Shown here: one piece after another, positions 5,937 through 42,168 of the stretch
Position numbering within the stretch: the first letter of the stretch is position 1
Layout: every line of letters begins with the position of its first letter
Virus record (IMG/VR): IMGVR_UViG_3300029527_000003
Coordinates: 1 to 42,168 of that record
DNA: 42,168 nucleotides
Source of the DNA: a virus
Direction: 5' to 3' (one strand)
Notes under the pieces: model-generated
What the model was told of the DNA's origin: nothing
The model's input: only the letters and a program-made list of their open reading frames with translations
Databases searched by the model: none
Translations under genes and position numbers: made by a program

Positions 5937-6533
5937 TTGATGAGCTACTTTACTGCGGAAAAGCTTGGTGTCGCACTGGCGCGGGCCAGAGTCGCGGCAG
6001 GCTTGAGCCAAGTCGACATGGCCCGCCGGATCAACAAGGGAAAGGCTACGATCCAGAGCTGGGAGTGCGGAGCGTCCAGCCCACCAGCTGACAAGATAAT
6101 GGACTGGTTCGAGGCTTGCGGGACTTCTCCGCTCCCCGCCATGCAAGAAATGCTGCACCCAGAACTTTATAAAGAGCCCGTACAGCGCAAATCAGACGAA
6201 GAGCTGGATGAGGCGCTTACAGAATACTTTCGCACAGCGCCGCGAATTGTAAAAGAGATGGTGCTGTTTATCCTTTTGGGCCGACATGGCAGCTATCCAC
6301 CGGCGGTGTTTGCTGAGGTGTGCGCGAATCTGCATACTCCCTTGCAAAACAAGGTATCCGTCTGCGGCCAAATACTGGACAATTACGAGTTCGCCGTGGC
6401 TACAGGAACAGACCCGATTCCGTGGGAAGTCCAGCCTCCGGTGAGTCTGCTGCAGTCGGCATACCAGGCGGGAAAAGAGGCCGCGAAGAGCGGCGAGGCC
6501 GACTATACCGCAAAGCGAGGTGAAGAGCTTTGA
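5937..6533 (+). CDS. XRE-type HTH regulator with a long C-terminal domain, immediately upstream of the integrase
   Basis: HTH segment LSQVDMARRINKGKATIQSWECG. GAGGT lies upstream of ATG 5940 (TTG 5937 in the track). The stop overlaps the int start. Confidence 0.65.
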   Translation: MMSYFTAEKLGVALARARVAAGLSQVDMARRINKGKATIQSWECGASSPPADKIMDWFEACGTSPLPAMQEMLHPELYKEPVQRKSDEELDEALTEYFRTAPRIVKEMVLFILLGRHGSYPPAVFAEVCANLHTPLQNKVSVCGQILDNYEFAVATGTDPIPWEVQPPVSLLQSAYQAGKEAAKSGEADYTAKRGEEL

Positions 6534-7663
6534 AATGCATTCGCGCCTGCTGCCGTCGGGAAATACCGGATGATGCATCTTTTTGCCCATACTGCGGCAA
6601 GAAGCAGCCCGAAGCCGCCCCGCAGCAAAGAAAAAAGCGCCGCCGCCCAAAGGGCAGCGGCAGTGTATATAAGTTGAGCGGGACGAGGTCAAAACCGTAT
6701 GTGGCCCTGACAGCCAAGCGAGACGTTCTGGGGACGTTTGCAACGCCGGGCGAAGCAGTACAAGCGCTGGACGCTTACAACGCCCAGAACACCCCCGCAG
6801 CGCGTCTGAAATGCACTTTTGCGGATGCCTACGCCCAATGGAAAGCGCAGCCCAAATTTGACAAGCTCAGCACTGACATGAAAAAGGGTTATGAGCTGGC
6901 CTATGCAAAGGCTGCGCCGCTGTATGACCGACAGCTCCGGGACTTAAAATCCGCAGACTATCAACAGGTGATTGACCAGATGGTGGAAAAGGGCCTCTCC
7001 CGCAGCTCCTGCGAAAAGCAGCGCACACTTTTCAGCCAGATCTGCGAGTGGGCGATGGCTCAGGACATCATAAACAAAAACTATGCCATGCTCTTGCAGC
7101 TCCCAGCGGCTACAGGCAAGGCAGAGCGCACCTTGACCGCTCAAGAGATAGAGCAAATAAGCAGCCGACAAGACGACCCGAAGCTTGGGCAGACAGCGCA
7201 AATCGCAATGGTGCTGCTCTACACCGGTATGCGTATCGATGAGCTGCTCTCCATGCGCTGCGACGATGTGCATCTAAAAGAGCGGTATATGCAGGGCGGC
7301 GAAAAGACCGAGGCGGGCAAAAACCGCATTATCCCTATTTTGGACCCCATTTATAAAATTATTGCCTTTTGGATGCTTGACAGCGGCTGTGAGTGGCTGA
7401 TACCGTCCAAAGCCGGTACAAAGCTGGACAAGCGCAACGTGGCTACAAAGTTTCGAACCTTGATGCAGGAGTGCCATATAGAGGGAGTGCATCCGCATAC
7501 GCTGCGCCACACGGCCAGCAGCAAGATGGTGGAGTGCGGCCTGGAAAAGACCGCCGTGCAGGCCATCTTGGGCCACAAAAATTTCTCCACCACAGCCAAC
7601 AAGTACGTCTCCCACAATGACCCGGATTATCTGTTGCAGGAAATGCAAAAGATGAAGTATTGA
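6530..7663 (+). CDS. int: Tyrosine recombinase / phage integrase with N-terminal zinc ribbon
   Basis: Motifs GMRIDELLSM (Arg), HTLRHTASS (H-x-x-R) and LGHKNFSTTANKYVS (His...Tyr). The N-terminus is CIRACCRREIPDDASFCPYCGKK. TTG start follows GAGGTG. Confidence 0.9.
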   Translation: MKCIRACCRREIPDDASFCPYCGKKQPEAAPQQRKKRRRPKGSGSVYKLSGTRSKPYVALTAKRDVLGTFATPGEAVQALDAYNAQNTPAARLKCTFADAYAQWKAQPKFDKLSTDMKKGYELAYAKAAPLYDRQLRDLKSADYQQVIDQMVEKGLSRSSCEKQRTLFSQICEWAMAQDIINKNYAMLLQLPAATGKAERTLTAQEIEQISSRQDDPKLGQTAQIAMVLLYTGMRIDELLSMRCDDVHLKERYMQGGEKTEAGKNRIIPILDPIYKIIAFWMLDSGCEWLIPSKAGTKLDKRNVATKFRTLMQECHIEGVHPHTLRHTASSKMVECGLEKTAVQAILGHKNFSTTANKYVSHNDPDYLLQEMQKMKY

Positions 7664-7687
7664 TTTGTTAGATTGTTTGTTAGATTG
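7664..7687. repeat. Arm-type integrase-binding candidates (P arm)
   Basis: Perfect tandem TTTGTTAGATTG x2, directly after the int stop. Confidence 0.6.
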
Positions 7688-7733
7688 TCATGTTCATTCA
7701 GGAGGTTTTAAGGCATTTTAAGCAAAAAGAAAA

Positions 7734-7774
7734 ACGCACGGACGATTCGTTTTAATCGTTCGTGCGTTTATTTT
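7734..7774 (+). terminator. Rho-independent terminator after int
   Basis: Stem ACGCACGGACGATT / AATCGTTCGTGCGT (one G:U), followed by TTTATTTTT. Confidence 0.7.
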
Positions 7775-7824
7775 TGGAGCTGGTGACAGGAGTTGAACCT
7801 GCAACCCACTGATTACAAATCAGT
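7775..7824 (-). other. attP core: 3' 50 nt of a tRNA-Thr(UGU) gene (anticodon arm to CCA); not a complete tRNA
   Basis: Minus strand reads ACTGA-TTTGTAA-TCAGT GGGTT GCAGG-TTCAACT-CCTGT CACCAGC T CCA. No D-arm or 5' acceptor half lies upstream. Confidence 0.75.
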
Positions 7825-7857
7825 TTTATTTTACCATTTATCGATAAAAACTCAAAG

Positions 7858-7877
7858 TTTGTTAGTCTCGTGTTAGC
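7858..7877. repeat. Arm-type site candidates (P' arm)
   Basis: TTTGTTAG (7858-65) and GTGTTAGC (7870-77) share the TGTTAG core with 7664-7687. Confidence 0.45.
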
Positions 7878-7945
7878 TTATCAAACTTAAAAATTCAACT
7901 TTTCAAGTTTTGGCTGTATGTAAAAATAACACATTTTGTGTCGTT

Positions 7946-8278
7946 TTACAATGCGGTTATCTTCCGCATGACCAACTCATACTCTTTCGGGTATGCAAGC
8001 TTTATGGCGCTCATGTGCTCATCAAGCACTTCCATCAAGCCTCCAAAGGGCGCGGCGCTGGCAGCTTCCACGAACTCGCTTTGCGGATTTGCTTTTGTGG
8101 AGTATGCCGCCGGGTACGACGCGGGAGGCAGCGCTTGAGTCTGCATTTCTGCCGGCGCCTGCTTTTCTTCCAGCTCATTCCTCACGGTGCAGAGGGCGGC
8201 AAGTTTTTCCACGCTCTGCCAGTCCGTCGATCCGCATTTCAGCTTGTGGATATGGGTGTTGATCTCGTCGATGTCCAT
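7946..8278 (-). CDS. Hypothetical protein (cassette gene 7)
   Basis: RBS GGGAGGAGGG. 110 aa with a helical N-terminus and a P/A/S-rich centre. Confidence 0.6.
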   Translation of the reverse strand: MDIDEINTHIHKLKCGSTDWQSVEKLAALCTVRNELEEKQAPAEMQTQALPPASYPAAYSTKANPQSEFVEAASAAPFGGLMEVLDEHMSAIKLAYPKEYELVMRKITAL

Positions 8279-8296
8279 ACTTGCCGCCCTCCTCCC

Positions 8297-8698
8297 TTAT
8301 GCGTTGCGCAGAATGTCCGCCGCGCGTTTGTAAGCGTCTCGCTCTGCGCCGGTGGCGTCCTGCATCATGTCCTCAATGTCAGAGATCATGCGATCACGGC
8401 CATCCGTGCGGGAGTAGTGTCCGCGCACATAGTGACGGCCACGGTTGGCGTAGCTGTTGCCCCGGTTGTAACCGTTCCCGGCGTCGCGGTTGAAGGATCC
8501 GCGCATGTCGGCTTCCCACTCGCCTGTACGGCTGTACTCGCCGCCCTCGCAGTAATCCTCGATGCGGTGAATGTCCAAAATGATGTCCACGATCTCGCCG
8601 ATCATCTCAACATCGCCCGGAGAGCGATTCTTTTTGTCGGTCAGCTCCATGAGCTCGTCGCACATCTCATCCTTCAGGTGATTCAGTTTATCCAGCAT
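8297..8698 (-). CDS. Hypothetical protein with acidic helical ends and an R/G/Y/N-rich core (cassette gene 6)
   Basis: RBS AAAGGAG. The core reads NRDAGNGYNRGNSYANRGRHYVRGHYSRTDGRDR. Confidence 0.6.
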   Translation of the reverse strand: MLDKLNHLKDEMCDELMELTDKKNRSPGDVEMIGEIVDIILDIHRIEDYCEGGEYSRTGEWEADMRGSFNRDAGNGYNRGNSYANRGRHYVRGHYSRTDGRDRMISDIEDMMQDATGAERDAYKRAADILRNA

Positions 8699-8714
8699 GA
8701 TTTTATCTCCTTTC

Positions 8715-9137
8715 TTATGCTACCCGCTCGACGATGAGATTGCTGTTTGCAATGTCGATCGCCTGCGTGCTGGTGTTCTCGACTGCCACGGTCACGCAGC
8801 AGCCGCGCGGAACCTCGATAAAGGCGGCGGCGAACACATTAAAGTAGTCCCCTGCTGCCGCCGGGGTAACAATGGCCGTTGCGCTGTTCAGCGGCTCGCC
8901 AGCGATTGCCAGCGCTACAGAGATAGCCCCGGCAGTGCCGCCGGTAGGTACCGCGATGTTTCCGCCAAAGCTCACCTTGAAGCGGGCTTTGCACTGGTTT
9001 GTCAGGCCGCGCAGGGTCACGATACCCGCGCCCTCACGATGGACGATGCAGGCCGGGCCTTTTACGGCAGTCTCTGTCAAGGGAAGGTTTTCCCCGGCGG
9101 ATACCGTCACGATATTGGGATTCGTAAATTCAGCCAT
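8715..9137 (-). CDS. Beta-rich protein, possibly a C1q/TNF-like (BclA C-terminal-domain-like) fold (cassette gene 5)
   Basis: ATG at 9137 lies 8 nt after AAAGGAG. The pattern ...VTLRG...FKVSFGGNIAVPTGGTAGAISVALAIAGEPLNSA...VAVENTSTQAIDIANSNLIVERVA recalls BclA-type CTDs. This is from memory and weak. Confidence 0.55.
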   Translation of the reverse strand: MAEFTNPNIVTVSAGENLPLTETAVKGPACIVHREGAGIVTLRGLTNQCKARFKVSFGGNIAVPTGGTAGAISVALAIAGEPLNSATAIVTPAAAGDYFNVFAAAFIEVPRGCCVTVAVENTSTQAIDIANSNLIVERVA

Positions 9138-9152
9138 TTTATCGGCTCCTTT

Positions 9153-9188
9153 CATAAATAAAAGCGCCGGGACTTCTGCCCCGGCGCT
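9153..9188 (-). terminator. Rho-independent terminator-like hairpin between cassette genes 4 and 5
   Basis: Perfect 9-bp stem AGCGCCGGG/CCCGGCGCT with a 7-8-nt loop (the second half can slide by 1 nt), followed on the minus strand by TTTTATTTAT. Confidence 0.6.
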
Positions 9189-9253
9189 CTGGTTTGCAAA
9201 ATCAGCTCAGGGGCTGAACAGGCTACAAATTGTAGTCAGTTGCCGTTATTTGG

Positions 9254-10030
9254 TTATGCGCAGCCGTTACAGCCGCATCCGGTGCCACAATTACCGTACT
9301 GGTACGGCGCAGGAACCGGGAAGGCAGGAACGGGACGCGGGTTGTAGTAGGCCAGCTGACCGCTCATGTATGCCTTGAGGGTCTCGTTCTGCGCCGCCTG
9401 GGAAGCTGCAAGCTGAGCCGCAAAGAGCTGCTGGCTCTGCTCCGCGATCTTGGCGTCCTTTGCCTCGATGCGCTGAGCTGTGAGAGCGTCCAGGATAGCC
9501 CGGGCGTTCTGGTTCTGGTTGTCTACGATGTCCCGGGTCGCGTTCTGCACGGTGTTCCGGGTCTCGCAGGACTGGGTAGCCAGATTGTAGTTGACGCCCT
9601 GGATAGCAGACCGGGTCTCACAGCAGCAGTTCTGCTGCTGCATCTGCATCGCAAAGAGCTGCTGCATGAATGCCGCCTGCTGATTTGCACGGCTGATCTC
9701 GGCGGACATAAAGCCGTTGCCCATGTTCTGCTGGACGCCGTTGATGAGCTGTGCCTGCTGGTAGAAGCCGTCACACATACCGTTATTTACGCCATCGATC
9801 TTGCGTTCGATATTGGCGAAGTCGCTGGTCAGGATGTAGCCATCTACGACGCCGGCGCCGGCACCGGCGCGATTGCCGCCCCAGTTACCGCCCCAGCCAC
9901 AGAAGATAAAAAGGAAGAGCACGATGATCCACCACGAACCATCGCCGCCAAAGCCAAAGCCGTTGCCGTTGTTGGTATTGGCGGGCTGCACCGGCATAGT
10001 CAAGCCGATGTTGTCAGAAGAAAGAGACAT
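9254..10030 (-). CDS. G/N-rich, single-TM, Q/N-rich and Cys-rich protein (cassette gene 4)
   Basis: RBS AAAGGAG. Contains NGNGFGFGGDGSWWIIVLFLFIFCGWGGNWGG, a Q/N-rich centre with CCCETR...SCETR, and the C-terminal motif YGNCGTGCGCNGCA. Confidence 0.65.
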   Translation of the reverse strand: MSLSSDNIGLTMPVQPANTNNGNGFGFGGDGSWWIIVLFLFIFCGWGGNWGGNRAGAGAGVVDGYILTSDFANIERKIDGVNNGMCDGFYQQAQLINGVQQNMGNGFMSAEISRANQQAAFMQQLFAMQMQQQNCCCETRSAIQGVNYNLATQSCETRNTVQNATRDIVDNQNQNARAILDALTAQRIEAKDAKIAEQSQQLFAAQLAASQAAQNETLKAYMSGQLAYYNPRPVPAFPVPAPYQYGNCGTGCGCNGCA

Positions 10031-10091
10031 TTTGTACTCCTTTCGAAATTTTTGGTAAAAAGTGTATCTCGACCGTGGCCACGGTTACGAC

Positions 10092-10319
10092 TTAGTGTAA
10101 AAACTGCTGGAACTGCTGAGCCATTGCCTGAAGCTGGTTGAGCTGGTCTTGGCTCATCCGCCCGGATTGCAGGAGCTTTTGCACCTCCTGCTTTGGATCG
10201 CCCTGAAAATTAGCCTTGAACTGCTGGAACTGCTGCATCATCTGGCCGAACTGGCCCATAGGGCCGGCCGTGGAGGATGCTTTGCCGCCGCCCAGTGCAT
10301 TAAAAAGAGGATTTGCCAT
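10092..10319 (-). CDS. Small Q-rich protein (cassette gene 3)
   Basis: ATG at 10319 follows GGAGGT (GTG 10325 is an alternative). Contains FGQMMQQFQQFKANFQGDPKQ...LQAMAQQFQQFLH. Confidence 0.55.
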   Translation of the reverse strand: MANPLFNALGGGKASSTAGPMGQFGQMMQQFQQFKANFQGDPKQEVQKLLQSGRMSQDQLNQLQAMAQQFQQFLH

Positions 10320-10321
10320 GA

Positions 10322-10771
10322 TCACTTGACCTCCGTTTCGGTTTTTGTGGGCTCCTGCTTTTCCAGCGCTGCACAGCGGGCTGCCAGGGCGTCAAACTCT
10401 GCCCTGGTGACAAACTCCCCGCCGGGCTGTTGGACGGCCTGAGCGGGCATCTTAGCTGCCGTGGTGCGCTCCTTGTAATCAAAGGCCCTGAGCGGCAGCG
10501 GCATTCCGCTTGCGTCCGTGCTCTTGATGTAAAAGGCGCTGTTCTCGCTGTCCATCAAGAGTACGCTGTTCCCGGCGGCTACCATGTAGGCTTTTGCGCC
10601 CTCTTCGCCCTGCACCCAGATGATCGGAGGCGTAGATGGGGAGCTTTGCCCTGTCGGTTGGCTCATCATGGGCGGCTGATACCCGGCATTCTGCCGCAGC
10701 TGCGTGAGCTGGTCAGGCATAGGCTGCCCGTAGTAGTTTGGCATTTGATAGCCATATGGATTGTACGGCAT
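10322..10771 (-). CDS. Protein with a Y/P/Q-rich N-terminus and a globular centre (cassette gene 2)
   Basis: RBS AAGGAGGA. Sequence MPYNPYGYQMPNYYGQPMPDQLTQLRQNAGYQPPMM..., then IIWVQGEEGAKAYMVAAGNSVLLMDSENSAFYIKSTDASGMP. Confidence 0.65.
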   Translation of the reverse strand: MPYNPYGYQMPNYYGQPMPDQLTQLRQNAGYQPPMMSQPTGQSSPSTPPIIWVQGEEGAKAYMVAAGNSVLLMDSENSAFYIKSTDASGMPLPLRAFDYKERTTAAKMPAQAVQQPGGEFVTRAEFDALAARCAALEKQEPTKTETEVK

Positions 10772-10774
10772 CGT

Positions 10775-11152
10775 TTAGTCCTCCTTGTACCAGTAATAGA
10801 TCGGGCATTCTGCGCCGCTGTCCCAGCTGTCCAGCCAGTCACCGTTGACCACGGCCAGAACATGGCCGGAACACCCCAGCACATACACGCCGTGCGGGTA
10901 CTCCCGGGCAAAATCTGCCACGGTGTAACAGGTGGCGCAGTCCGCCTCCACCATGCGGCGCTTGAATCCGTGCTTTTGGAGGTATGCGCCCCATGTGCGG
11001 TTGGCGCTGGGCATATCGCCGAGAGCAAAGCCGGTCAGCGCCAATCCAATGTAGGCCTGCTCCCAGCTCTGCCCAGTGGCTGCTGCTACCGCGCGCACGG
11101 AGCAATCACCCACGCTGCCCCCGTGGGGGTTGGGGCTGAACTTGTTCCACAT
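10775..11152 (-). CDS. Putative papain-like Cys-His-Asp peptidase-fold protein (cassette gene 1)
   Basis: ATG at 11152 follows GGAGG. Candidate triad residues are GDCSVRA (Cys), CSGHVLAVV (His) and DSWDS (Asp). The assignment is an inference only. Confidence 0.5.
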   Translation of the reverse strand: MWNKFSPNPHGGSVGDCSVRAVAAATGQSWEQAYIGLALTGFALGDMPSANRTWGAYLQKHGFKRRMVEADCATCYTVADFAREYPHGVYVLGCSGHVLAVVNGDWLDSWDSGAECPIYYWYKED

Positions 11153-11236
11153 TGGCGCTTGCCTCCTTTGCGCCCAGTGTAGCAGAGCCGCCCGGCGGGA
11201 GAGACAACGAAGGTACAACGAAGGACAAAAAAAGAT

Positions 11237-11292
11237 AGCATAAATAATTTATTTTCTCAAATTTACTGTTGACAAAATAAATTATTTATGCT
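11237..11292. repeat. 19-bp perfect inverted repeat flanking and overlapping divergent promoters
   Basis: AGCATAAATAATTTATTTT (11237-55) and AAAATAAATTATTTATGCT (11274-92), separated by 18 nt. Confidence 0.85.
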
Positions 11293-11297
11293 ATAAT
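11269..11297 (+). promoter_or_regulatory. Consensus sigma70 promoter for the plus-strand module
   Basis: TTGACA (11269-74), 17 nt, TATAAT (11292-97). The mirror-image element on the minus strand reads TTGAGA, 17 nt, TATCTT. Confidence 0.7.
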
Positions 11298-11341
11298 AAG
11301 AGTGTCAAGAGGAACACCCAAACAAAACGGAGGAACGAACG

Positions 11342-11746
11342 ATGAAAGCTTACAACCTGCACGAGATCATGAGCAATGCCTGGGCAATGTACCGCAAGTG
11401 GGTCGCACCTTACAAGTACAATCACAGCCGTATCCCCAGCTGCTACACTTTTGCAAGTGCTCTCAAGCAGGCTTGGGCCGCTGCAAAGACCGCTGCCAAA
11501 AAGGTCGCAGCCGGCATCGTTCGCATGCACTACAGCCAGTACAAGGCCGAGTACAGCAAGTGCCAGACCGTCGAGGGCAGCTACGACAAGGCCACCAAGA
11601 CCATCGAGGTCATGACCAAGGCTATCCGCACCTTTGAGCGTCCCGCATATACCGCAGCTCGTACCTCTCGCCGCCCCAGCGTGACCGCCATCCGCGGCCT
11701 CTGCCCCCGTTGCCACACCTACTGCTATGGTGACTGCATGGCATAA
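11342..11746 (+). CDS. Basic protein with C-terminal CxxCxxxCxxxC motif
   Basis: RBS GGAGGAA. The protein is K/R/A-rich and ends in GLCPRCHTYCYGDCMA. Confidence 0.65.
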   Translation: MKAYNLHEIMSNAWAMYRKWVAPYKYNHSRIPSCYTFASALKQAWAAAKTAAKKVAAGIVRMHYSQYKAEYSKCQTVEGSYDKATKTIEVMTKAIRTFERPAYTAARTSRRPSVTAIRGLCPRCHTYCYGDCMA

Positions 11747-11779
11747 TCCACACACTCAACTATAAGGAGGACAACAACA

Positions 11780-12052
11780 ATGGCTAAGTTTTATGATGGC
11801 AGCAAGCTCCTGAGTATTAAAATGACCCACACCCGCACCGGCATCGACTTCGAAAACGACTTCTTCGAGGTCGGCGGCCTCGAGTACAACGCCGATCTGG
11901 GCGCTTACAAGGTCGAGGACGTCGAGTATCTGGCCGACTACGCCAAGAGCTACGCCGACGGCACCAACGGCGACATCGACTACACCGTCGATGAGGACGG
12001 CAATGTCGTGGTCCCCGACTGCACCGTCGATTATGACATCGAGGTGATGTGA
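11780..12052 (+). CDS. Highly acidic small protein (possible DNA mimic or anti-restriction candidate)
   Basis: RBS AAGGAGGA. Hand count gives about 21 D/E versus about 6 K/R in 90 aa. Confidence 0.65.
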   Translation: MAKFYDGSKLLSIKMTHTRTGIDFENDFFEVGGLEYNADLGAYKVEDVEYLADYAKSYADGTNGDIDYTVDEDGNVVVPDCTVDYDIEVM

Positions 12053-13575
12053 TGTTGTACTCATGGGCGCTCATTGACCCGGACGGCAAGCGTCACGAGG
12101 TCGATGATCTGGCAAAGTGGAGCCAGGACAATGTAAAATTGTTTTTCCCGGATGCCGCACCGGACAACGCCGCAGCCCGGATCGCCGAAGGCGTCCAGAT
12201 GCTGTGGTACGCGCTCAAGCACCCGGAAAGGCCTCACGGGCTGCACACTTATAAAGGGTGGACGCTTGCAGAGCCTCCGCAGCCCAAGGCACCAAAGGCT
12301 AAAGATCCCAAAAAGCCGCTTGCCGACCGGTTAATAGGCAAAACTTTTGGCGATCTCTCCATCGTCGGCACGGCACCGGCGAAGATCATGCCCAACGGAT
12401 ATAAATGCACAATGGTCGTCGTGCATTGCGCTCTTTGCGGCAATGACAGGATCATGTCCTACAACTCCTTAAAAATATCAAGGAGCTGCGGCTGCCAGCG
12501 AGGACGGCGCAGGAAAGACGGACTCGCCCCGCAGCCCGTCACGCCCTCCAGACAGCCTCCCTATGATCAGGCGCCTGCCGACCATAAAGGCAAATCACTA
12601 AAAAAGATCTGCGCTATCTGCGGCAAGCCTTTTTATGCCTCTCCCAGTGACGTAAACCAGCAATGCTGCTCAAAAAAATGCAGCGCTGCCCTACGGGTAA
12701 AAAATGGTCATATCAACAACGCTGCATGGTCGGATGAGGCAAAGGCCCGCCGGGCAGCAGACCCGGAGATCCAGGCACGTATGCAGACATTGCAATCCAT
12801 AGGCACTTCGGCGGCTCTAGAGTTGCCCGCAGGTCAAAAAGGGCCGCAAAATCGTGAGGCTCTTGTCTGGCAACTGATCGACCCGGACGGCAACACCCAC
12901 AAGGCGGTCAATCTGCTGGACTGGGCGCGTAAAAATCATCTGCTGTTTTTTGACGAGGACGTCCCGGAGGACGTCGCCGCAAAAAGGATTGCAGCAGGAT
13001 TCAGGGCGATCGCCACGTCGATCCGTGGGACTCGCTTAAAATCACGCCCGGCAGCGAGCTACAAGGGATGGATGTTGGCCGGGCTTCCCACGCCCAAAAC
13101 GACAGATGACGATAACTTTGACAATGTGGAGGATACCATGCGCAAAATAATCAACGGCTCTCGCTACAGCACCGATACCGCAAAAAAGATCGCCCACTGG
13201 GAGTCCGACCAGGACTACACCAGCTTTACCCACTGCGAGGAGACGCTTTACCGCACCAAGGCAGGCAAGTGGTTTATCCACGGCACCGGCAACGCGGCCA
13301 CTGTGTACGCCGTCCGCCGCGGCGACGGATGGACGGCCCCCGGCGAGCAGATCGTGCCGCTCTCCGAAGAGGTCGCGCGAATCTGGGTGCTCGAGCACCT
13401 TGGCGAGGAACAGTGCGACGCCATCTTTGGCACCGGAAGTGAGGACACAAAGGATGTGCAGGCTACGGTCTACATCCCGGGTCCGCTCGCCGAAAAGATG
13501 GCAGCTCGGATAGATGCAGAGCAGTGCAACCGAAATGAGCTTATCCTGCAGGCGCTGCGGGAATATCTCAAGTAA
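12049..13575 (+). CDS. 508-aa multidomain protein: duplicated N-module, Cys clusters, conserved globular domain, C-terminal ribbon-helix-helix
   Basis: Internal repeats at 12064-12288 and 12868-13098 share W.LIDPDG..H...L..W...N..LFF...P...AA.RIA.G...YKGW.LA..P.PK. Also present are FGDLSIVG...CALCGN...SCGC and CAICGKPF...CCSKKC. The C-terminus VYIPGPLAEKMAARIDAEQCNRNELILQALREYLK is CopG-like. Confidence 0.7.
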   Translation: MMLYSWALIDPDGKRHEVDDLAKWSQDNVKLFFPDAAPDNAAARIAEGVQMLWYALKHPERPHGLHTYKGWTLAEPPQPKAPKAKDPKKPLADRLIGKTFGDLSIVGTAPAKIMPNGYKCTMVVVHCALCGNDRIMSYNSLKISRSCGCQRGRRRKDGLAPQPVTPSRQPPYDQAPADHKGKSLKKICAICGKPFYASPSDVNQQCCSKKCSAALRVKNGHINNAAWSDEAKARRAADPEIQARMQTLQSIGTSAALELPAGQKGPQNREALVWQLIDPDGNTHKAVNLLDWARKNHLLFFDEDVPEDVAAKRIAAGFRAIATSIRGTRLKSRPAASYKGWMLAGLPTPKTTDDDNFDNVEDTMRKIINGSRYSTDTAKKIAHWESDQDYTSFTHCEETLYRTKAGKWFIHGTGNAATVYAVRRGDGWTAPGEQIVPLSEEVARIWVLEHLGEEQCDAIFGTGSEDTKDVQATVYIPGPLAEKMAARIDAEQCNRNELILQALREYLK

Positions 13576-13585
13576 ACAAAAAAAT

Positions 13586-13620
13586 CCCCCGATGCTCCAA
13601 ACGGAACACCGGGGTTTTTT
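13586..13620 (+). terminator. Rho-independent terminator of the plus-strand module
   Basis: Stem CCCCGATG/CACCGGGG (one mismatch), followed by TTTTTTG. Confidence 0.65.
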
Positions 13621-13682
13621 GTTTGTATGCAGAATCAGCTCTAAAATGTGACCCTACTTACACTTAGACCGATATGAGTATA

Positions 13683-13976
13683 TCACAAATTCAGCATTTT
13701 ATCAATGCCTTTCAGCCGGTAGCCTATCGCTGTCCGGCTGTAATGTGTCTGCGCTGCAATCTCCGGCAGCGGGAGCCGCTCAACGTACCGCAGTAAGGCT
13801 ATCTTACGGTCTACCCTCCCAAGCGGTGCGCTTTTGATCGCGGCGGTCATCCGCTGTCTGTCAAGTCCTCGCAGCGCAGCGGGCAGCACTACGCGAGCCG
13901 CCGCCACAGGCAGCACCGAGCCAAAAAGGCTGCGGCAGCTGTCCGGCGTTGCGCACCATAGTGCCAAGCGCGGCAA
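13683..13976 (-). CDS. Sigma-70 region-4-like HTH protein; N-terminal extent uncertain (ATG at 13850 gives 55 aa)
   Basis: The C-terminal segment LGRVDRKIALLRYVERLPLPEIAAQTHYSRTAIGYRLKGIDKML matches a region-4 pattern. The upstream 40 aa look non-protein-like. No clear RBS. Confidence 0.4.
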   Translation of the reverse strand: MPRLALWCATPDSCRSLFGSVLPVAAARVVLPAALRGLDRQRMTAAIKSAPLGRVDRKIALLRYVERLPLPEIAAQTHYSRTAIGYRLKGIDKMLNL

Positions 13977-14021
13977 ACCGGTGACAAAACGTCACCAGTT
14001 TGTTGACGTTACCAAAATCGC

Positions 14022-14061
14022 AATGAGTTCGACTTTTAACAGCTAAAAAGTTGAACTCATT
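14022..14061 (-). terminator. Long hairpin after the lysis cassette (end of the late operon)
   Basis: 16-bp arms AATGAGTTCGACTTTT / AAAAGTTGAACTCATT (one mismatch) with an 8-nt loop. On the minus strand it is followed by GCGATTTTGG. Confidence 0.55.
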
Positions 14062-14116
14062 TGCTAAAATGGCCGTTTTGGGCCACTTTTGGGAATATGT
14101 AGTGCTGCTCATAGTC

Positions 14117-14458
14117 TTACTCCTTACTCAGTGCCGCCTTCATGCGGTCAAAGAAAAACTGGATCACCCGCCCGATGGTCTCATCGGTGATGGCCCAGCT
14201 GATGAGCTTGCCGTATTTGCTGGCGCTCAGAGCGGCCCGGAGCATCTTGACGACCCACGCCTTGCGCTCTGCGCCGCGCTTTGTCCCCTGGATCTCCTGC
14301 TCAGCCCTCTCGATGAGGTCAAGCACCAGAGGCTTCACGGCGGCGCCGTAGCCCAGCCGGATGCAGCCAAGGGCGTAGAAAATAAAGCCGCCCAGCATCA
14401 GCACTGCCGCCACCGGGGCAGGGATAAGGTCAAAAAGCTTAGTTGCCAGTGCTTCCAT
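14117..14458 (-). CDS. Holin (LL-H-like pattern)
   Basis: N-terminal TM LIPAPVAAVLMLGGFIFYALGCI, then QGTKRGAERKAWVVKMLRAAL. Adjacent to the endolysin. RBS AAAGGAG. Confidence 0.65.
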   Translation of the reverse strand: MEALATKLFDLIPAPVAAVLMLGGFIFYALGCIRLGYGAAVKPLVLDLIERAEQEIQGTKRGAERKAWVVKMLRAALSASKYGKLISWAITDETIGRVIQFFFDRMKAALSKE

Positions 14459-14831
14459 GATTGGTCACTCCTTTTAACAGATAGTTGTCGATGTCGGCGC
14501 GGCTCTTCTGCATCCCCTCGCGATTGTTGCCGGACAGCTGCGCGTCCAGCAGATTGCGCACCCCGTCGAGGGTCAGACGGCTCACCTCGTCGATTTCTTC
14601 AAAGCGGCGCAGGTCACGGGCAAGGGCTTGTGTGTGCTGAAGCTGGCCCTGCTCCAAGGTGCCGATGCGCTTGTCCAGCTCATCCAGCCGCTTGTTCTGC
14701 GCGTTGTCCGGCTCCTGCGCCTTTTTGATGTACTTGTGGATAATTTCCAGCACCTTGTCGATGGTGATGGCTGCAGCGCACAGGCTGCCCAGGATGCCCA
14801 GTACCCACAGCAAAGCTTCTTTTTCGCTCAT
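14439..14831 (-). CDS. Membrane-anchored coiled-coil lysis-associated protein
   Basis: N-terminal TM ALLWVLGILGSLCAAAITI plus a coiled coil. It lies between the endolysin and the holin, and its start overlaps the endolysin stop. Confidence 0.55.
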   Translation of the reverse strand: MSEKEALLWVLGILGSLCAAAITIDKVLEIIHKYIKKAQEPDNAQNKRLDELDKRIGTLEQGQLQHTQALARDLRRFEEIDEVSRLTLDGVRNLLDAQLSGNNREGMQKSRADIDNYLLKGVTNHGSTGN

Positions 14832-15631
14832 GCGCCCTCCCGGAGACGGGTCAGACCCTTCTTGCGGATGATTTTGGGATAGTTGATCTCTGTCACGTTG
14901 AGGTCTGCGTTGCCCGTGATGCCCGGAACGCTGCCCTTGCTGGTGTGCTGGTGGGCGTTGTAGGCAAAATCGACCTTGGGGGTCTTGCCGGTATAGTCCG
15001 CCAGCCAGACGTCATAAGGCTTGAGGGCCGCACCGCCCACATAGAGACGCGCCTTTGCGAAGCTGGTGTAGGTGTACAGCTGGGCGTAAAAGCCCATCTG
15101 CTCTACCTCATGCAGAGCATAGGCGGTCAGGTCAGTCAGGCTCTGCTTGTCCAGATTGCCCAGCCGGTTGTCCTCCACGTCCACCGCCACAGGCAGGGTC
15201 AGCTCCTTGCCCCGCAGCGCCTGCCGCAGCAGGGCGAGCTCTGCATCAGCCATGGCCTCGCTGGTAGCGTAGGTGTAGTAGTACACGCCCACGTCCAGCC
15301 CGGCAGCCCGGGCGTTGCGGTAGTTGGTCTCAAAGGTCGGGTCGATGTACAGGCCGTCTGCCCGCTTGGAGAGCTTGCGGTTGGTGCTCACGGTCTTGAG
15401 CATTGCCCCCTTGTAGCCCGCCGCAGCCACCTGCGCCCAGTCGATAAGGCCCTGATACCGGCTCACGTCCACAAAGCGATAGGGCGGCGCACCGGTCCAG
15501 CCGGTCACAGCCTCTGCCCCGGGGGGTTCGGGAGGCTCCGGTGCGGGCTTTGCCTCTTCGGCATCCTGCTTGTCCCCGGGGCCAAAGATGGCCCGCACCA
15601 GCTTTTCCAGAAGTTGCAGCAGCTTACCCAT
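14828..15631 (-). CDS. Endolysin, GH25 muramidase
   Basis: FVDVSRYQGLIDWAQVAAAGYKGAMLK...GVYYYTYA...LPVAVDVE is a typical GH25 signature. A Pro-rich linker follows the N-terminal helix. Confidence 0.85.
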   Translation of the reverse strand: MGKLLQLLEKLVRAIFGPGDKQDAEEAKPAPEPPEPPGAEAVTGWTGAPPYRFVDVSRYQGLIDWAQVAAAGYKGAMLKTVSTNRKLSKRADGLYIDPTFETNYRNARAAGLDVGVYYYTYATSEAMADAELALLRQALRGKELTLPVAVDVEDNRLGNLDKQSLTDLTAYALHEVEQMGFYAQLYTYTSFAKARLYVGGAALKPYDVWLADYTGKTPKVDFAYNAHQHTSKGSVPGITGNADLNVTEINYPKIIRKKGLTRLREGA

Positions 15632-15791
15632 CGTAGTCCTCCCCCGTGATCTCCTTATACCGCTCTGCGTCGATCTCGCCGTCGGTCACCCGCCTCGCCA
15701 GCTCGGCTTTGACTCTGGGGCGGCGGCTTGCGGGCATCTCTGCCCAGGTCTTGGTACCGGCAATCAATCTGTTTGCCCAGATTTTGTCCAT
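15624..15791 (-). CDS. XkdX-like small tail/lysis-region protein
   Basis: ATG at 15791 follows AAGGAGGA. Sequence: MDKIWANRLIAGTKTWAEMPASRRPRVKAELARRVTDGEIDAERYKEITGEDY. Confidence 0.55.
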   Translation of the reverse strand: MDKIWANRLIAGTKTWAEMPASRRPRVKAELARRVTDGEIDAERYKEITGEDYDG

Positions 15792-15804
15792 TTTGATGTC
15801 CTCC

Positions 15805-15999
15805 TTACTTGTTGACGGCGGCATCCAGCTCGCACAGCGAGTCTTCGATGGTCGCCATCCGCTCTTCCGATGCCATGTCCTGCTCACACAGGGCGTCCTC
15901 AATGGCGGCCACCTGCTCCGGGAGCTTCCGCAGCTTCTCTTTTTCGGCCTGCTTCTTATGCTGCTCCTTCAGGCTCTGCTTGTTGTAGTATACGCTCAT
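15805..15999 (-). CDS. Small coiled-coil protein
   Basis: The ATG overlaps the upstream stop (ATGA). Sequence: MSVYYNKQSLKEQHKKQAEKEKLRKLPEQVAAIEDALCEQDMASEERMATIEDSLCELDAAVNK. Confidence 0.5.
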   Translation of the reverse strand: MSVYYNKQSLKEQHKKQAEKEKLRKLPEQVAAIEDALCEQDMASEERMATIEDSLCELDAAVNK

Positions 16000-17318
16000 C
16001 CGATAACACCTCCGATCATGGTGATATTGCCGCCGACGCCGGAAGCTCCTCGGGCAATCGTCACCTTGTAGTTGAATGCAAAGCCCCGGGCGGCGGTCTT
16101 GTTGGTAAAGACGTGGTGTACAAAAGCCCGGCTCTCGCCGCGCTGGATGTCGGTACAGTTCTCCCACACGGGGCTGTCGTCTAAGGCGTTGTTGGTCATT
16201 TCCACGCTGAGGCTCAGGTCTGTCGGCAGGGTGCCTTCCAGCGTCATGGAGGCTACCGTAATGGTGTCGTCTGCCGTCAGCGGCTGGGCCAGCGAGAGGA
16301 CGGCACGGGTCACGTTTTTGGTAAAGGTAGCGGTCCACTCTGTCGTGGTCTTTCCGTCGTCCGCTTCCAACACCAATTTGTTCTCCCCGTTGAGGACCTG
16401 CTGGAACAGCGCCTTCTCGCTCAGGCGCTGTACCGTGAGTTCGGTGCCGGAGGCCACGTTTTCGCGGACGGCCATCTCCACACCGTTCACCTTTTCGACG
16501 ATGCGCATGGGGTCTCCGTCGCCGTCGGTCACGGTGTAGGACAGAGTAAACGGCTCGTTCTTCTCGCCCAGTGCCACGCCGCTCTCGCCCACATCGGAAG
16601 TGATTTCCGGCGGCTGGTTTTCCGTAGGGAAGCCGTCTTTGTCGATGTACAGCGTCTCCGGCAGGGTGAAACAGGGAAGATAGCCGATATTATAATTGTA
16701 AGCCTGTTCAAGATTGAAACTAGCCCCACTTGCGCTACTTACGTACATACCATTGGCAAAGTAATATATACTATCGCCGTCGCTATCGGTACGGTGGTCC
16801 GTATAGGTTGGTCCAGGGCTTCTTGTCCAAAAGGCACCATAAGAGCGTATGGCTGCTAATCGAGTACGTGCCGCAGTAGAAAGAGTCGTACCGTCCGAAT
16901 AGTTATAACTCCCAAAGCGCGATACCCCCAATTCCACTGACGAGATTGCAAAAAAGCTAAAGCCAGCACTGGTCACATCCATATTATAACTAGGACTGCT
17001 GTTGCCAAGAGGATTATGCAAGCTGTTAACATGGATTTTCGTACTCCCAATCCAGCTTTTCACAGTCGTTGTGAAGTTGGCCAAATAAGTATTCCTATAA
17101 TATGAACACTCCAAACAGCTGGGCCAATAAGAAGCGTCGGACCTACTATTTCCTGTTCGTGTGCCTTTCGTCGCCGGACTCTCCCGGCAAAACATCGTCC
17201 GCCCTTTGCCGTTCAGGCTGGACTCATAGTTGTGGGCCAGCACGTAAAACTTGACTTTTGTGCTGCCTTCCATCAGGTATACAAAGCCGTCACCAACGGC
17301 TAAGTCTTTGATCTGCAT
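15996..17318 (-). CDS. Tail fiber / receptor-binding protein candidate with an AT-rich N-terminal module
   Basis: Last large tail gene. The N-half contains FFAISSVELG...AFWTRSPG...YLPCFTL, which I recall as a DUF6273-like pattern. The C-half is beta-rich and Ig-like. Confidence 0.6.
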   Translation of the reverse strand: MQIKDLAVGDGFVYLMEGSTKVKFYVLAHNYESSLNGKGRTMFCRESPATKGTRTGNSRSDASYWPSCLECSYYRNTYLANFTTTVKSWIGSTKIHVNSLHNPLGNSSPSYNMDVTSAGFSFFAISSVELGVSRFGSYNYSDGTTLSTAARTRLAAIRSYGAFWTRSPGPTYTDHRTDSDGDSIYYFANGMYVSSASGASFNLEQAYNYNIGYLPCFTLPETLYIDKDGFPTENQPPEITSDVGESGVALGEKNEPFTLSYTVTDGDGDPMRIVEKVNGVEMAVRENVASGTELTVQRLSEKALFQQVLNGENKLVLEADDGKTTTEWTATFTKNVTRAVLSLAQPLTADDTITVASMTLEGTLPTDLSLSVEMTNNALDDSPVWENCTDIQRGESRAFVHHVFTNKTAARGFAFNYKVTIARGASGVGGNITMIGGVIG

Positions 17319-27409: not shown

Positions 27410-27486
27410 TGGTGCCGCCTGTGGGGCTTGAACCCACGGCCCCCGGATTACAAATTCGGTGCTCTGCCAACCTGAGCTAAAGCGGC
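27410..27486 (-). tRNA. tRNA-Thr (anticodon UGU), CCA encoded
   Basis: GCCGCTT TA GCTC AGGTTGGCA GAGC A CCGAA TTTGTAA TCCGG GGGCC GTGGG TTCAAGC CCCAC AGGCGGC A CCA. There is one A:C mismatch in the anticodon stem. Confidence 0.8.
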
Positions 27487-34234: not shown

Positions 34235-34403
34235 CGCCACCACCTCTCTAAACTCAGACAAAAGAAAAACCGCCCGGAAAATCCGAACGGTCAGAATATC
34301 AAAATAAGAGGCCTTGCTTGTCGGGTTCAAAGCCTCTGCGTCCAGAACTTTCGCGGCCGGATGCCCCGCTATTGCACTCCCCGCTCTCGTCAGATCATGC
34401 AAG

Positions 34404-34476
34404 CACTCCCGGCAGGACTCGAACCTGCAACATGCGGTTTTGGAGACCGCCGCTCTACCACTTGAGCTACCGGAGT
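34404..34476 (-). tRNA. tRNA-Trp (anticodon CCA), no encoded CCA end
   Basis: ACTCCGG TA GCTC AAGTGGTA GAGC G GCGGT CTCCAAA ACCGC ATGTT GCAGG TTCGAGT CCTGC CGGGAGT G. There is one G:G mismatch at acceptor pair 6:67. Confidence 0.75.
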
Positions 34477-37884: not shown

Positions 37885-38633
37885 GGTTTCACCCCCTTGA
37901 AAATATTTGCGTATGCTTCTGCGGTGCTTTCTGTGGCTTGTTTCCCGCGAGGCTGCTCTTGTCGGCGCTGCTCATTCGCTGCCACGTCCCCCGGGGTGCG
38001 TATCCGGTCCCGCTGCCAGCCAGACAGGATGCCGTTGATGTAGTTCCACGAGCGTTTCCCAGCCTCTGCGGCCTTGTCGATCGCCAGCAAAATCATCTCC
38101 GTGCTGTACTCCTGCCGCCATTTTTGCAGTTTTTCCAGCGCCGAACGCGGGAAGTCGCCGATAGCCCGCTGGTAATGCTGAACGATTTTTGATAACTCCA
38201 TATCAACGGCGGCGGTGTTATCGCGCTTTACAACATCTACATCCCCATCTACATCTACATCCCCATCTACATCTACATCTCCATTTACATCTACATCTAC
38301 AGTTATTTTTGTTATGTCGTCATTAACATTGTTATCGTTTGTTATTTTTGTTATGTCGTCAGGCTTTCCCCAGCGCTTTGCCATACCGCGTTTTCCGGCG
38401 TTGCTGCGTTTCTTGCGAGTTTCATCCCATTTTTCAGACGCCCGTTTTACGTCGCTGCACATAAATTTCCAGTTGCCCCGCATCCCACGGTCTGAAAATT
38501 CGGGCTCTTCTCCGGTTTTGGCATACCGTGCAAGAGCTCGCATCAACTGCCCAACCTCTGCGTCGGAGTATTCTTCCAGCGCGTCGAACCAGCTCAGATA
38601 CGCCACAAATGACTTTTTATCGTCCTGCGCCAC
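37881..38633 (-). CDS. Replisome organizer / DnaD-domain replication initiation protein
   Basis: N-terminus FVAYLSWFDALEEYSDAEVGQLMRALARYAKTGEEP. C-terminus ILLAIDKAAEAGKRSWNYINGILSGWQ is DnaD-like. The centre is encoded by DNA repeats. Confidence 0.7.
   Translation of the reverse strand: MAQDDKKSFVAYLSWFDALEEYSDAEVGQLMRALARYAKTGEEPEFSDRGMRGNWKFMCSDVKRASEKWDETRKKRSNAGKRGMAKRWGKPDDITKITNDNNVNDDITKITVDVDVNGDVDVDGDVDVDGDVDVVKRDNTAAVDMELSKIVQHYQRAIGDFPRSALEKLQKWRQEYSTEMILLAIDKAAEAGKRSWNYINGILSGWQRDRIRTPGDVAANEQRRQEQPRGKQATESTAEAYANIFKGVKP
38233..38300. repeat. Hexamer-based tandem array (ATCTAC/ATCCCC units; 18-bp super-unit) inside the organizer gene
   Basis: ACATCTACATCCCC ATCTACATCTACATCCCC ATCTACATCTACATCTCC ATTTACATCTACATCTAC. 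It encodes (GDVDVD)n. Confidence 0.85.
38302..38361. repeat. Two perfect 21-bp direct repeats (iteron-like; origin candidate)
   Basis: GTTATTTTTGTTATGTCGTCA occurs at 38302-38322 and 38341-38361. Confidence 0.85.
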
Positions 38634-41789: not shown

Positions 41790-42168
41790 TTACTGCTCTG
41801 CTTCCGCGAACTCACCATTTTTGAGTGTGTACCAGACGTTTTCTTTGATGTGGGCGCCGTCTACTTTTGCCATCTTTGCCCACAGCATATTGCCGTCATC
41901 GTCGTACTCGGTCAGCACCAGATAGCAGCCCAGAATGCCACGTGCCTTACTGTGTGCGCCGTTTGCGACTGCGACATTGTCTTTTCCATCTGCTTTTGCT
42001 CTGCAATAAGCCCCAGTGGCTGCTGCCGTACTGTAATAGCCGCTCGAACTAGCCGTACTGGAATTGCCGCTCGAACCAGCCGTACTGGAATAGCCGCTCG
42101 AACTAGCCGTACTGGAATAGCCGCTCGAACCAGCCGTACTGGAATAGCCGCTCGAACCAGCCGTACTG
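41790..42168 (-). CDS. C-terminal part of the repeat protein (stop at 41790-41792)
   Basis: The repeats are followed by ...GAYCRAKADGKDNVAVANGAHSKARGILGCYLVLTEYDDDGNMLWAKMAKVDGAHIKENVWYTLKNGEFAEAEQ*. The frame is continuous with 1..485 across the overlap. Confidence 0.8.
   Translation of the reverse strand, partial: STAGSSGYSSTAGSSGYSSTASSSGYSSTAGSSGNSSTASSSGYYSTAAATGAYCRAKADGKDNVAVANGAHSKARGILGCYLVLTEYDDDGNMLWAKMAKVDGAHIKENVWYTLKNGEFAEAEQ
42025..42168. repeat. 27-bp tandem repeat array, right part
   Basis: Same 27-bp unit as 1-139. After collapsing the overlap there are about 8 units in total. Confidence 0.9.
42097..42168. repeat. Terminal direct overlap, right copy (identical to 1-72)
   Basis: Same 72 nt as the window start. 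Confidence 0.9.

Follow-up and report, generated by a model that had tools for sequence, protein, structure and literature searches.

What might be the function of seven tightly packed phage genes whose products resemble none of the standard phage proteins? The question is raised by the virus record IMGVR_UViG_3300029527_000003 of IMG/VR, of which positions 1 to 42,168 (42,168 nucleotides, hereafter the window) were analyzed. Here, seven minus-strand genes, designated g1 to g7 in the direction of transcription, form a cassette next to the phage attachment site (attP). The cassette represents a conserved, movable accessory module of siphophages infecting gut and rumen Clostridia (Lachnospiraceae, Oscillospiraceae). 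It is not a lysis cassette, a recognizable virion module, or a known defense system; five of its proteins (g2, g3, g4, g6, and g7) belong to no described family, and a fold could be assigned to only two. By analogy with proteins of similar fold, the cassette may build a membrane-anchored intracellular assembly around g4 and a g5 trimer, a reading that is put forward tentatively, as possible rather than probable.

The seven minus-strand ORFs (open reading frames) are real genes. An initial annotation, made from the sequence alone, had placed seven packed genes with strong ribosome-binding sites at 7946–11218. The frames and their Shine–Dalgarno sequences were found: such an element (AAGGAGG twice, CGGAGG, AAAGGAG three times, and GGGAGGAGG) lies 6–10 nt ahead of the ATG in all seven cases, and the intergenic gaps from g1 to g7 are 3, 2, 61, 116, 16, and 18 nt. 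The span itself had to be shortened at one end. The g1 frame is open up to TTG 11218, but its start is most likely ATG 11152, because the homologues are 124–127 aa long and a Shine–Dalgarno sequence precedes this ATG; the cassette is thus confined to 7946–11152. The start of g3 was set at ATG 10319 (75 aa) and that of g5 at ATG 9137, which gives 140 aa, the length of most homologues. Purifying selection acts on every one of the seven genes, the median ratio of nonsynonymous to synonymous substitution rates (dN/dS) being 0.09–0.18 per gene in comparison with up to 23 related loci. The protein motifs quoted in the initial annotation are present and conserved.

The genes also keep together as a block. 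Among the 80 IMG/VR contigs nearest in g5 (71–99% identity), 73 carry all seven genes, so that the lack of co-conservation raised beforehand as a possible objection was not observed. Profile matches are listed in order in 72 contigs; the matches of g1 and g2 appear in reverse order in one (L022), which is taken to reflect overlapping stop-to-stop ORFs. The remaining seven contigs either interrupt the block by their end or lack g7. Beyond this sample, tblastn and profile searches revealed g1–g7 or g1–g6 in collinear order in nine phage loci at 25–82% protein identity, including Dulem viruses 33 and 35 (lemur gut), several human-faecal phage scaffolds, one metagenome-assembled genome of Clostridia, and the Butyrivibrio phage Ceridwen. 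Identity to the collinear genes of Ceridwen and the lemur-gut phages is only 35–50%. Ceridwen has all seven genes and a 265-aa extra gene between g5 and g6 (7518–8312 of its locus, L001), and it provides a cultured system for testing the role of the cassette. An insertion is also tolerated in Dulem virus 33, where an opposite-strand endonuclease gene lies between g3 and g4 (5419–5970 of L002). The g5 family comprises more than 8000 clusters at 90% identity and the g4 family 1406 clusters at 50% identity; a relative of g5 is encoded in no fewer than 590 IMG/VR contigs, which places the block among the commoner gene sets of human-gut phage contigs. Three hosts can be identified by name: Butyrivibrio fibrisolvens, Anaerobutyricum hallii, and Anaerotruncus colihominis.

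Searches with the proteins agree with the earlier statement that none of them resembles standard phage functions. PHROGs gave strong matches for g1–g5, a weak one for g6, and none for g7, all matched families being of "unknown function", and nothing significant was found for the seven proteins in Pfam, NCBIfam, or PADLOC. No homology to virion or lysis components (endolysin, holin, spanin), which had been named as a possible refutation, was detected in PHROGs or Pfam. PDB sequence searches with single sequences and profiles (g1, g2, g4, and g5) yielded chance-level matches only, and Pfam searches with diverse homologues of g2, g3, g6, and g7 or with 77 representatives of the g4 family revealed no recurrent family. 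No paper describing the block was found in the literature on BclA-/TNF-like phage proteins, the PHROG numbers, DUF7841, and prophage-encoded spore-coat or sporulation functions; within the last topic, no paper mentioning Lachnospiraceae was found either. Thus, no known system or publication explaining the role of the block was found, nor any described counterpart of its combination of parts. The features are listed in Table 1.

Table 1. Coordinates of the cassette genes, their control elements, and the adjacent attachment site in the window
Feature	Coordinates	Strand	Basis
Control region: palindrome and two divergent sigma-70-like promoters	11235..11308	.	promoter and repeat scans
g1, 125-aa papain-like (C39-like) cysteine peptidase-like protein	10775..11152	-	Shine–Dalgarno sequence and ATG; phrog_3754, E 1e-28; invariant triad; AlphaFold2 model
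g2, 149 aa: P/Y/Q-rich N-terminus, small beta-rich core (WVQGEEGAKAY...FYIKS), C-terminal helix	10322..10771	-	phrog_21718, E 1e-33
g3, 75-aa Q/M-rich helical protein	10092..10319	-	phrog_22984, E 1e-24; collinear homologues; dN/dS 0.14
g4, 258-aa core protein with one membrane segment (WWIIVLFLFIF)	9254..10030	-	phrog_16490, E 6e-48; conservation
g4–g5 spacer: variable hairpin, short hairpin (9205–9219), terminator hairpin with T-run, g5 ribosome-binding site	9138..9253	-	RNAalifold; terminator scan
g5, 140-aa stand-alone TNF/C1q-like jelly roll of BclA_C/ExsF (BxpB) type	8715..9137	-	phrog_20016, E 7e-61; AlphaFold2 model; Foldseek
g6, 133 aa: conserved N- and C-terminal helices around R/G/Y/N-rich core (RGxHYVRGHYSR)	8297..8698	-	collinear homologues; dN/dS 0.10
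g7, 110-aa helical protein	7946..8278	-	homologues in L001–L004 and most IMG/VR loci; dN/dS 0.13
attP core, 3′ half of tRNA-Thr(UGU)	7776–7826	-	blastn to phage tRNA-Thr genes; Rfam tRNA, 27.5 bits; alignment

Of the two proteins with an assigned fold, g5 had been described as reminiscent of BclA-type C1q/TNF-like domains, and its AlphaFold2 (AF2) model bears this out. Built from a 112-sequence alignment, the model is all-beta with a predicted local distance difference test (pLDDT) score of 93. The top Foldseek matches in the PDB are the C-terminal domain (CTD) of F-BclA, ExsF, ExsFA/BxpB, and BclA, with expectation values (E) of 5e-7 to 5e-6 and template modeling (TM) scores of 0.72–0.77; exosporium folds are followed by TNF-family ligands (EDA, 4-1BBL) and then by phage fiber knobs. 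As modeled, g5 is a ten-stranded TNF-like jelly roll of the BclA_C/ExsF type. The window g5 does not match Pfam at E up to 1; five of its homologues (P0146, P0157, P0174, P0207, and P0121) match the BclA_C family with 27.7–33.5 bits (E 4e-8 to 3e-6), all under the cut-off of 38 bits, and three of the five span the whole profile. BFVD contains many stand-alone look-alikes of g5 from gut phages, some of which are named "BclA protein".

How close this likeness comes to the exosporium can be seen from a direct comparison. The ExsFA/BxpB protein and the CTDs of BclA and F-BclA (PDB 9h3d, 7r1m, 8d02, 1wck, and 9h38; Pfam PF18573) have the same jelly-roll fold, and ExsFA/BxpB, like g5, is a stand-alone protein of about 140–150 aa without a signal peptide (judged by eye for g5). 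Sequence identity of g5 to these proteins is only 8–14%, however; g5 is encoded by phages, including those of hosts not known to sporulate, and its partners g2, g3, g4, and g6 have no counterpart in the exosporium. Collagen-like repeats and an exosporium leader were sought with Pfam and NCBIfam in all cassette proteins and not found, with g5 being the 140-aa domain alone. In ExsF trimers, the inter-subunit clefts accommodate proline-rich leader peptides, those of BclA and F-Anchor (PMC12357932). The TNF-like phage knobs (phi812 central spike, 9eul; cyanophage A4, 9k09; A-1(L) short tail fiber, 8ke9) share the jelly roll with g5 at a TM score of about 0.62–0.63, but they are CTDs of long fiber proteins encoded in tail modules, whereas g5 is a separate 140-aa protein devoid of a shaft or an attachment domain.

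The other main constituent, g4, consists of a short acidic G/N-rich N-tail, the membrane segment (mean Kyte–Doolittle hydropathy of about 2.2 over 15 residues), a Gly-rich linker, a Q/N-rich region with CCC, a P[VI]PA[YF] motif, and a CxC-rich C-terminal tail, in this order. Trp34, GWG, CCC, prolines P233 and P235, and the C-terminal CxC are invariant in nine phage homologues, and W33, CC, and two prolines are at least 90% conserved among the 77 family representatives. The NTRDIIDNQN..RAILD block, the P[VI]PA[YF]xVxNP motif, and the GCGC-type C-terminal tail are conserved as well. All full-length members of the family are 220–340 aa long, and none is fused to another domain. The N-tail contains on average 0.38 K/R and 2.66 D/E, and the 30 residues past the membrane segment contain on average 1.23 K/R. 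This charge pattern weakly favors a topology predicted from the sequence in which the N-terminus is outside and the bulk of the protein in the cytoplasm. By eye, without a predictor run, no N-terminal signal peptide or hydrophobic stretch was seen in the translations of g1–g3 and g5–g7, g4 with its hydrophobic segment being the exception, and the envelope or other extracellular assembly suggested by the initial annotation is therefore unlikely. An exosporium leader was considered in the g4 tail, the g4 N-terminus, and the g2 N-terminus, and this candidate was dropped for want of an NCBIfam match.

The second protein with a recognizable fold is g1, in which the initial annotation had noticed a papain-like arrangement of Cys, His, and Asp. 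Cys17, His97, and Asp108 are indeed invariant in 121 sequences, and in the AF2 model (pLDDT 95) Cys17 begins helix 17–26, His97 begins strand 97–102, and Asp108 ends strand 105–108; the modeled layout is that of a papain-like Cys-His-Asp fold of the ~130-aa class. Sequence searches of Pfam and the PDB returned no match for g1, and its structural neighbors are distant: none of them reaches E ≤ 1e-3 in Foldseek. ComA C39 (E 0.12, TM score 0.44), AvrPphB, Josephin-2, LahT150, PCAT1, and staphopain occupy ranks 1–5 and 9 in the E range of 0.12–1.2, papain-like enzymes take five of the top seven places, and the TssM deubiquitinase (DUB), staphopain, and Tae4 are also among the matches. The C39 domains (ComA 3k8u, LahT150 6mpz, PCAT1 4ry2) provide the best-ranked neighbor and two more in the top five, and g1 is like them in size, in having Cys at the start of a helix, and in having His and Asp on later strands; yet the match is weak (E 0.12–0.9, TM score 0.38–0.45), and g1 is not fused to an ABC transporter. 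A transporter partner of the C39 kind was sought in the cassette and not found. Josephin and AvrPphB, other minimal papain-like folds, resemble g1 weakly as well.

It had been supposed that the peptidase processes the proteins of its own cassette. This is unsupported because g1 occurs alone and the variant cassettes lacking it keep the Gly-rich motif before the membrane segment of g4. Homologues of g1 (30–39% identity) are found without g2–g7 in Tsamsa-like Bacillus phages, where the protein is annotated as "putative peptidase", in Geobacillus phage GBK2, in Lak megaphages, and in a Curvibacter phage. Moreover, the GG motifs of g3 and g4 vary among homologues and are retained where g1 is missing. 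Thus, g1 is separable from the cassette and peripheral to it.

Little can be added for the other products. g2, for which neither Pfam nor the PDB gave a match, is found in every cassette variant, diverged forms included. The collinear homologues of g6 are 125–191 aa long, and g6 has no match in Pfam. g7 is the gene most often missing or undetected in the loci examined and is a peripheral member of the block.

Two conserved or conspicuous non-coding elements suggest how the cassette is expressed. The symmetric element upstream of g1, formerly placed at 11237–11297 and taken as a promoter region, is a palindrome with 26-nt arms at 11235–11260 and 11269–11294, 96% complementary and separated by an 8-nt spacer; its coordinates are thus corrected to 11235–11294, and a promoter-like site does face g1 (TTGACA-16-AATAAT, minus strand, 11308–11281). 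A second, perfect site (TTGACA-17-TATAAT, plus strand, 11269–11297) points to a plus-strand insertion. Relatives have a GC-rich terminator hairpin in place of the palindrome. The 5′ leader ahead of g1 (11153–11234) is conserved in many close relatives, TTTTTTGTCCTTCGTTGTACCTTCGTTG...TACACTGGGCGCAAAGGAGG, with equivalents in L025, L060, L117, L147, and L171. Direct repeats of the TTCGTT type upstream of g1 were considered as a universal operator and dropped, as they occur in only 31 of 86 loci.

The second element is an intrinsic terminator between g4 and g5. The hairpin that had been noted at 9153–9188, about 15 nt upstream of g5, is real and conserved; it lies at 9161–9190, has a 13-bp stem with nine G-C pairs followed by a T-run, and ends 24 nt before the g5 ATG. 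The three-hairpin layout of the 116-nt spacer recurs in 10 loci with otherwise unrelated spacer sequence, and RNAalifold found 14 consensus pairs, nine of them with compensatory changes, so the terminator is conserved with covariation. Ceridwen lacks this spacer, its g4–g5 gap being 12 nt. According to the simplest reading, partial termination sets g1–g4 above g5–g7 in amount, and a conserved internal terminator implies that the relative amounts of the products are fixed; the hairpins may also act in mRNA stability. After g7, the sole terminator-like hairpin was found beyond attP, with none between g7 and attP.

The position of the block bears on when it is used. In this genome and those close to it, the block comes after the holin and endolysin genes and is the final unit ahead of attP; a placement on the attP/integrase side is also seen in L002, L012, and L014, where in the latter two the block directly follows the holin gene. 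The view that it occupies the classic accessory slot next to attP is therefore true of this genome and does not extend to the whole family. In a large second group, referred to as clade B (Dulem virus 35, MT835516, and the L015–L017 contigs), characterized by a 136-aa g5, the block is inside the head operon, in the order terminase, portal, gp7-like minor capsid protein, g1–g6, scaffold, and major capsid protein; one or two small genes are added in some members, and g1 is missing from MT835516. The block of Dulem virus 39 follows the integrase gene, while Ceridwen has no integrase and has been observed in the lytic cycle only (PMC7372960). Because the position varies and Ceridwen lacks an integrase, the block moves between genome positions and is not tied to lysogeny; being inside a late head operon, it must in many phages be read along with the late genes. 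It resembles the moron genes of temperate Firmicutes phages in lying, in this genome, between lysis genes and attP, in having promoter-like sites upstream, and in occupying different places in different phage genomes. Such morons, however, are one or two genes, whereas the cassette comprises seven co-conserved genes and is also present in an integrase-less phage and in late head operons.

A related prophage with a serine recombinase was seen in an Anaerobutyricum hallii ENA scaffold (L013, 11322–11798), having its integration site at the 3′ end of the host gene for the primary sigma factor: g7 is adjoined by a 158-aa sigma r3/r4 fragment, after which comes host trmK. Two genes after the sigma fragment carry Anaerobutyricum hallii names. 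The idea that this prophage is a "skin"-type element of sigK was rejected, since the flanking fragment is named as a primary sigma factor and trmK lies beyond it.

Which genes make up the core becomes apparent from variant cassettes. L006 and L007 lack g1 and keep diverged g2- and g3-like genes, g4, and g5, with L007 having in addition a g6-like protein after g5. A second sample was composed of phages chosen by endolysin (75–96% identity), 67 of which had enough downstream DNA; about half of them (31) carry the full block and the other half carry variants. The L098 type (56–59-kb contigs) encodes g2-like and g3-like proteins, g4, then a 123-aa Cys-rich beta protein and a DUF7841 protein, while the L121 type encodes g2-like and g3-like proteins, a short g4, and a diverged g5 (E 4e-11 against the g5 profile). 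Because all variants examined retain them, the g2-like, g3-like, and g4 proteins together with a small beta-rich protein constitute the universal core; g6 accompanies it in most forms, and g1 and g7 are peripheral. The L098 variant (IMGVR_UViG_3300045988_091641, 13222–16098) lies behind a 96% identical endolysin gene and the same two small membrane-protein genes, and g1, g5, g6, and g7 were not detected in it. Its 123-aa protein begins with MACKTSCKLCP, looks cysteine- and beta-rich from its sequence, and has no detectable homologue; that it might be a diverged g5 is unsupported (E 0.05 against the g5 profile, no PDB or Pfam match).

The following picture can be proposed for the cassette. It would be transcribed as one unit, here from a sigma-A-type promoter in the palindromic operator/terminator and elsewhere within the late operon, and the terminator after g4 would pass only a fraction of the transcripts, leaving g1–g4 in excess over g5–g7. 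g4 would enter the cytoplasmic membrane by its single N-terminal hydrophobic segment, with the short acidic N-tail outside and the Q/N-rich, cysteine-bearing part of about 200 residues staying in the cytoplasm. g5 would trimerize like BclA and ExsF and might dock onto or cap a partner peptide, as in the ExsF clefts; the proline-rich tail of g4 is a weak candidate for this partner. The low-complexity or helical proteins g2, g3, g6, and g7 could serve as adaptors or matrix components, and g1 would be a cysteine peptidase whose target is perhaps outside the cassette. The outcome would be a membrane-anchored protein assembly inside the infected or lysogenic cell. The head-operon location in clade B, the block following the holin gene in L012 and L014, and the integrase-less Ceridwen point to late or lytic use.

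Several observations weigh against such an assembly. The g4 tails have no match in NCBIfam, and so the exosporium-leader model TIGR03720 (named in PMC12357932) is unmatched. The P[VI]PA[YF]xVxNP motif and g5 are uncoupled in two variants: in L098, g4 keeps the motif in its tail and an unrelated 123-aa Cys-rich protein replaces g5, while in L121 a g5 homologue is present and the g4 tail lacks the motif. The charge bias behind the g4 topology is weak, the interactions among the cassette proteins are presumed, and the apparent sigma-A promoter of its own next to attP fits cargo expressed in a lysogen equally well. The model also names no purpose for the assembly. An improbable specific version supplies one: a self-assembling, cross-linkable layer or matrix made inside the cell late in infection from exosporium- or coat-like parts (a trimer of the ExsF/BclA type, cysteine-rich proteins, and low-complexity proteins rich in Q/Y/R) and anchored to the membrane by g4, which might organize, encase, or protect virions or cell remnants. 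If true, it would be a bacterial-virus analogue of the occlusion body or the spore coat.

The same parts could instead form a virion appendage or decoration, with g4 as a Q/N-rich fibrous stalk, g5 as a trimeric knob, and g2, g3, and g6 as assembly factors. The clade-wide placement after the gp7-like minor capsid gene and ahead of the scaffold and major capsid genes would suit this role, as would g5: TNF-like knobs are common on phage fibers, its Foldseek matches include the phi812 central spike, the cyanophage A4 tail, and the A-1(L) short tail fiber, and some of its BFVD matches are named "fibritin neck whiskers" or "tail fiber". The structural look-alikes of g5 in BFVD (16–29% identity), however, are found in contigs labelled as siphovirus, podovirus, and myovirus, which would be surprising for a component bound to a single virion design if they are of the same family, and the PHROGs matches of g1–g6 include no structural annotation. 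A strongly hydrophobic segment of membrane type, as in g4, is unusual for a siphovirus fiber; in this genome and most related ones the block, with an apparent promoter of its own, is found past the lysis genes and well away from the structural genes, and about half of the phages with a 75–96% identical endolysin carry a different variant cassette. A virion role is thus considered unlikely. Still less is expected of cargo for lysogenic conversion that would alter the host envelope or spore surface (the latter in spore-forming hosts) by an exosporium-like logic, with a BclA/ExsF-type protein, cross-linkers rich in cysteine, and a CotG-like R/Y-rich protein. The slot beside attP, beyond the lysis genes, is the usual cargo place in Firmicutes prophages, and the block has a sigma-A-like promoter and a palindromic operator upstream; the nearest structural relatives of g5 are all exosporium proteins, and no signal peptide can be seen by eye in the soluble products, which in this are like spore coat and exosporium proteins. 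Set against this are the late head operon of clade B and the integrase-less Ceridwen, observed in the lytic cycle only. Searches with the cassette proteins yielded neither ExsY/CotY homologues nor collagen-like repeats nor a match to the exosporium leader, and Butyrivibrio fibrisolvens and Anaerobutyricum hallii are not known as spore formers. Altogether, this makes conversion cargo quite unlikely.

Two further explanations involve the membrane segment of g4 in other ways. A conflict module, either a membrane complex blocking superinfecting phages by exclusion or abortive infection or a counter-defense system with g1 as a deconjugating DUB-like peptidase, would accord with the membrane anchor, the moron-like mobility, and the variable partner genes, all of which suit a fast-evolving system, with the presence of g1 alone in many unrelated phages, and with the weak structural matches of g1 to Josephin-2 with ubiquitin, the TssM deubiquitinase, the PaJOS clippase, and USP5. 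It is made very improbable by the finding that every DUB-like match of g1 has a Foldseek E of at least 0.4 and that none of the seven proteins matches PADLOC-DB 2.0 (E up to 0.1), as well as by the seven collinear genes at low dN/dS, unusual for exclusion, and by the late head-operon expression, atypical of early counter-defense. Equally hard to believe is an accessory role in lysis or egress, in which g4 would act like a spanin, XhlA, or an antiholin, tuning or completing lysis. In clade A, the block does directly follow the holin/endolysin genes, and g4 combines an N-terminal membrane segment with a long Q/N-rich stretch assumed to be helical; but a GH25 endolysin and two small membrane proteins are already encoded by the phage outside the cassette, the clade-B cassette is several kilobases away from the holin gene, and we know of no precedent in lysis cassettes for a TNF-like trimer with four low-complexity proteins.

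Whichever reading is correct, the fold of a spore-surface protein is present in phages whose hosts include, as far as is known, non-sporulating Lachnospiraceae, and it is paired with an orphan membrane-anchored cysteine-rich protein. Finding the role of the block would give the annotation of gut phages a new functional category: intracellular assembly, virion appendage, or host-surface modification.

The genomic surroundings are as follows. That the window represents a complete phage genome, circular and about 42 kb in size, is concluded from the 27-nt tandem-repeat array shared by its two ends (10–195 and 41944–42156); this array may represent iterons or an origin. The lysogeny genes, i.e., repressor-like genes and the integrase (6530–7663), are on the plus strand. 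All lytic genes occupy the minus strand; they comprise genes for replication and recombination, among which those of a RecT-like protein and a DNA methyltransferase could be recognized, as well as the genes for a late regulator, the terminase, the portal, the capsid, and the tail. The lysis genes encode a GH25 endolysin (14828–15631) and two small membrane proteins (14117–14831). The attP core lies 120 nt from the g7 stop codon. An Rfam scan of 7600–14200 gave as its sole match the partial tRNA at attP, with a score slightly below the gathering score. tRNA-Thr(TGT) and tRNA-Trp(CCA) are encoded in the late region (27410–27486 and 34403–34476), the attP core corresponding to a different tRNA-Thr(UGU).

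The cassette is situated between the lysis genes and attP and is parted from the former by a three-gene plus-strand insertion (11342–13575), which is placed under the perfect promoter-like site at 11269–11297. Its 508-aa protein has an internal duplication (12070–12111 and 12874–12915) and weak PHROGs matches to HNH endonucleases. The unit looks like a mobile insertion because the 508-aa gene is near-identical (97–99%) in about 10 of 80 endolysin-matched loci and went undetected in the majority of the rest. After the lysis genes, a 97-aa minus-strand ORF (13683–13976) matches Sigma70_r4_2 weakly (E 1.3e-3), and so does a 66-aa gene between g1 and g2 in clade-B cassettes, which is unrelated to it; the idea that the two represent the same regulator was dropped, as they show no similarity. 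Finally, degenerate tandem repeats of the CATCTA type are present at 38252–38359 in the early/replication region, where they may serve as an origin or a set of binding sites.

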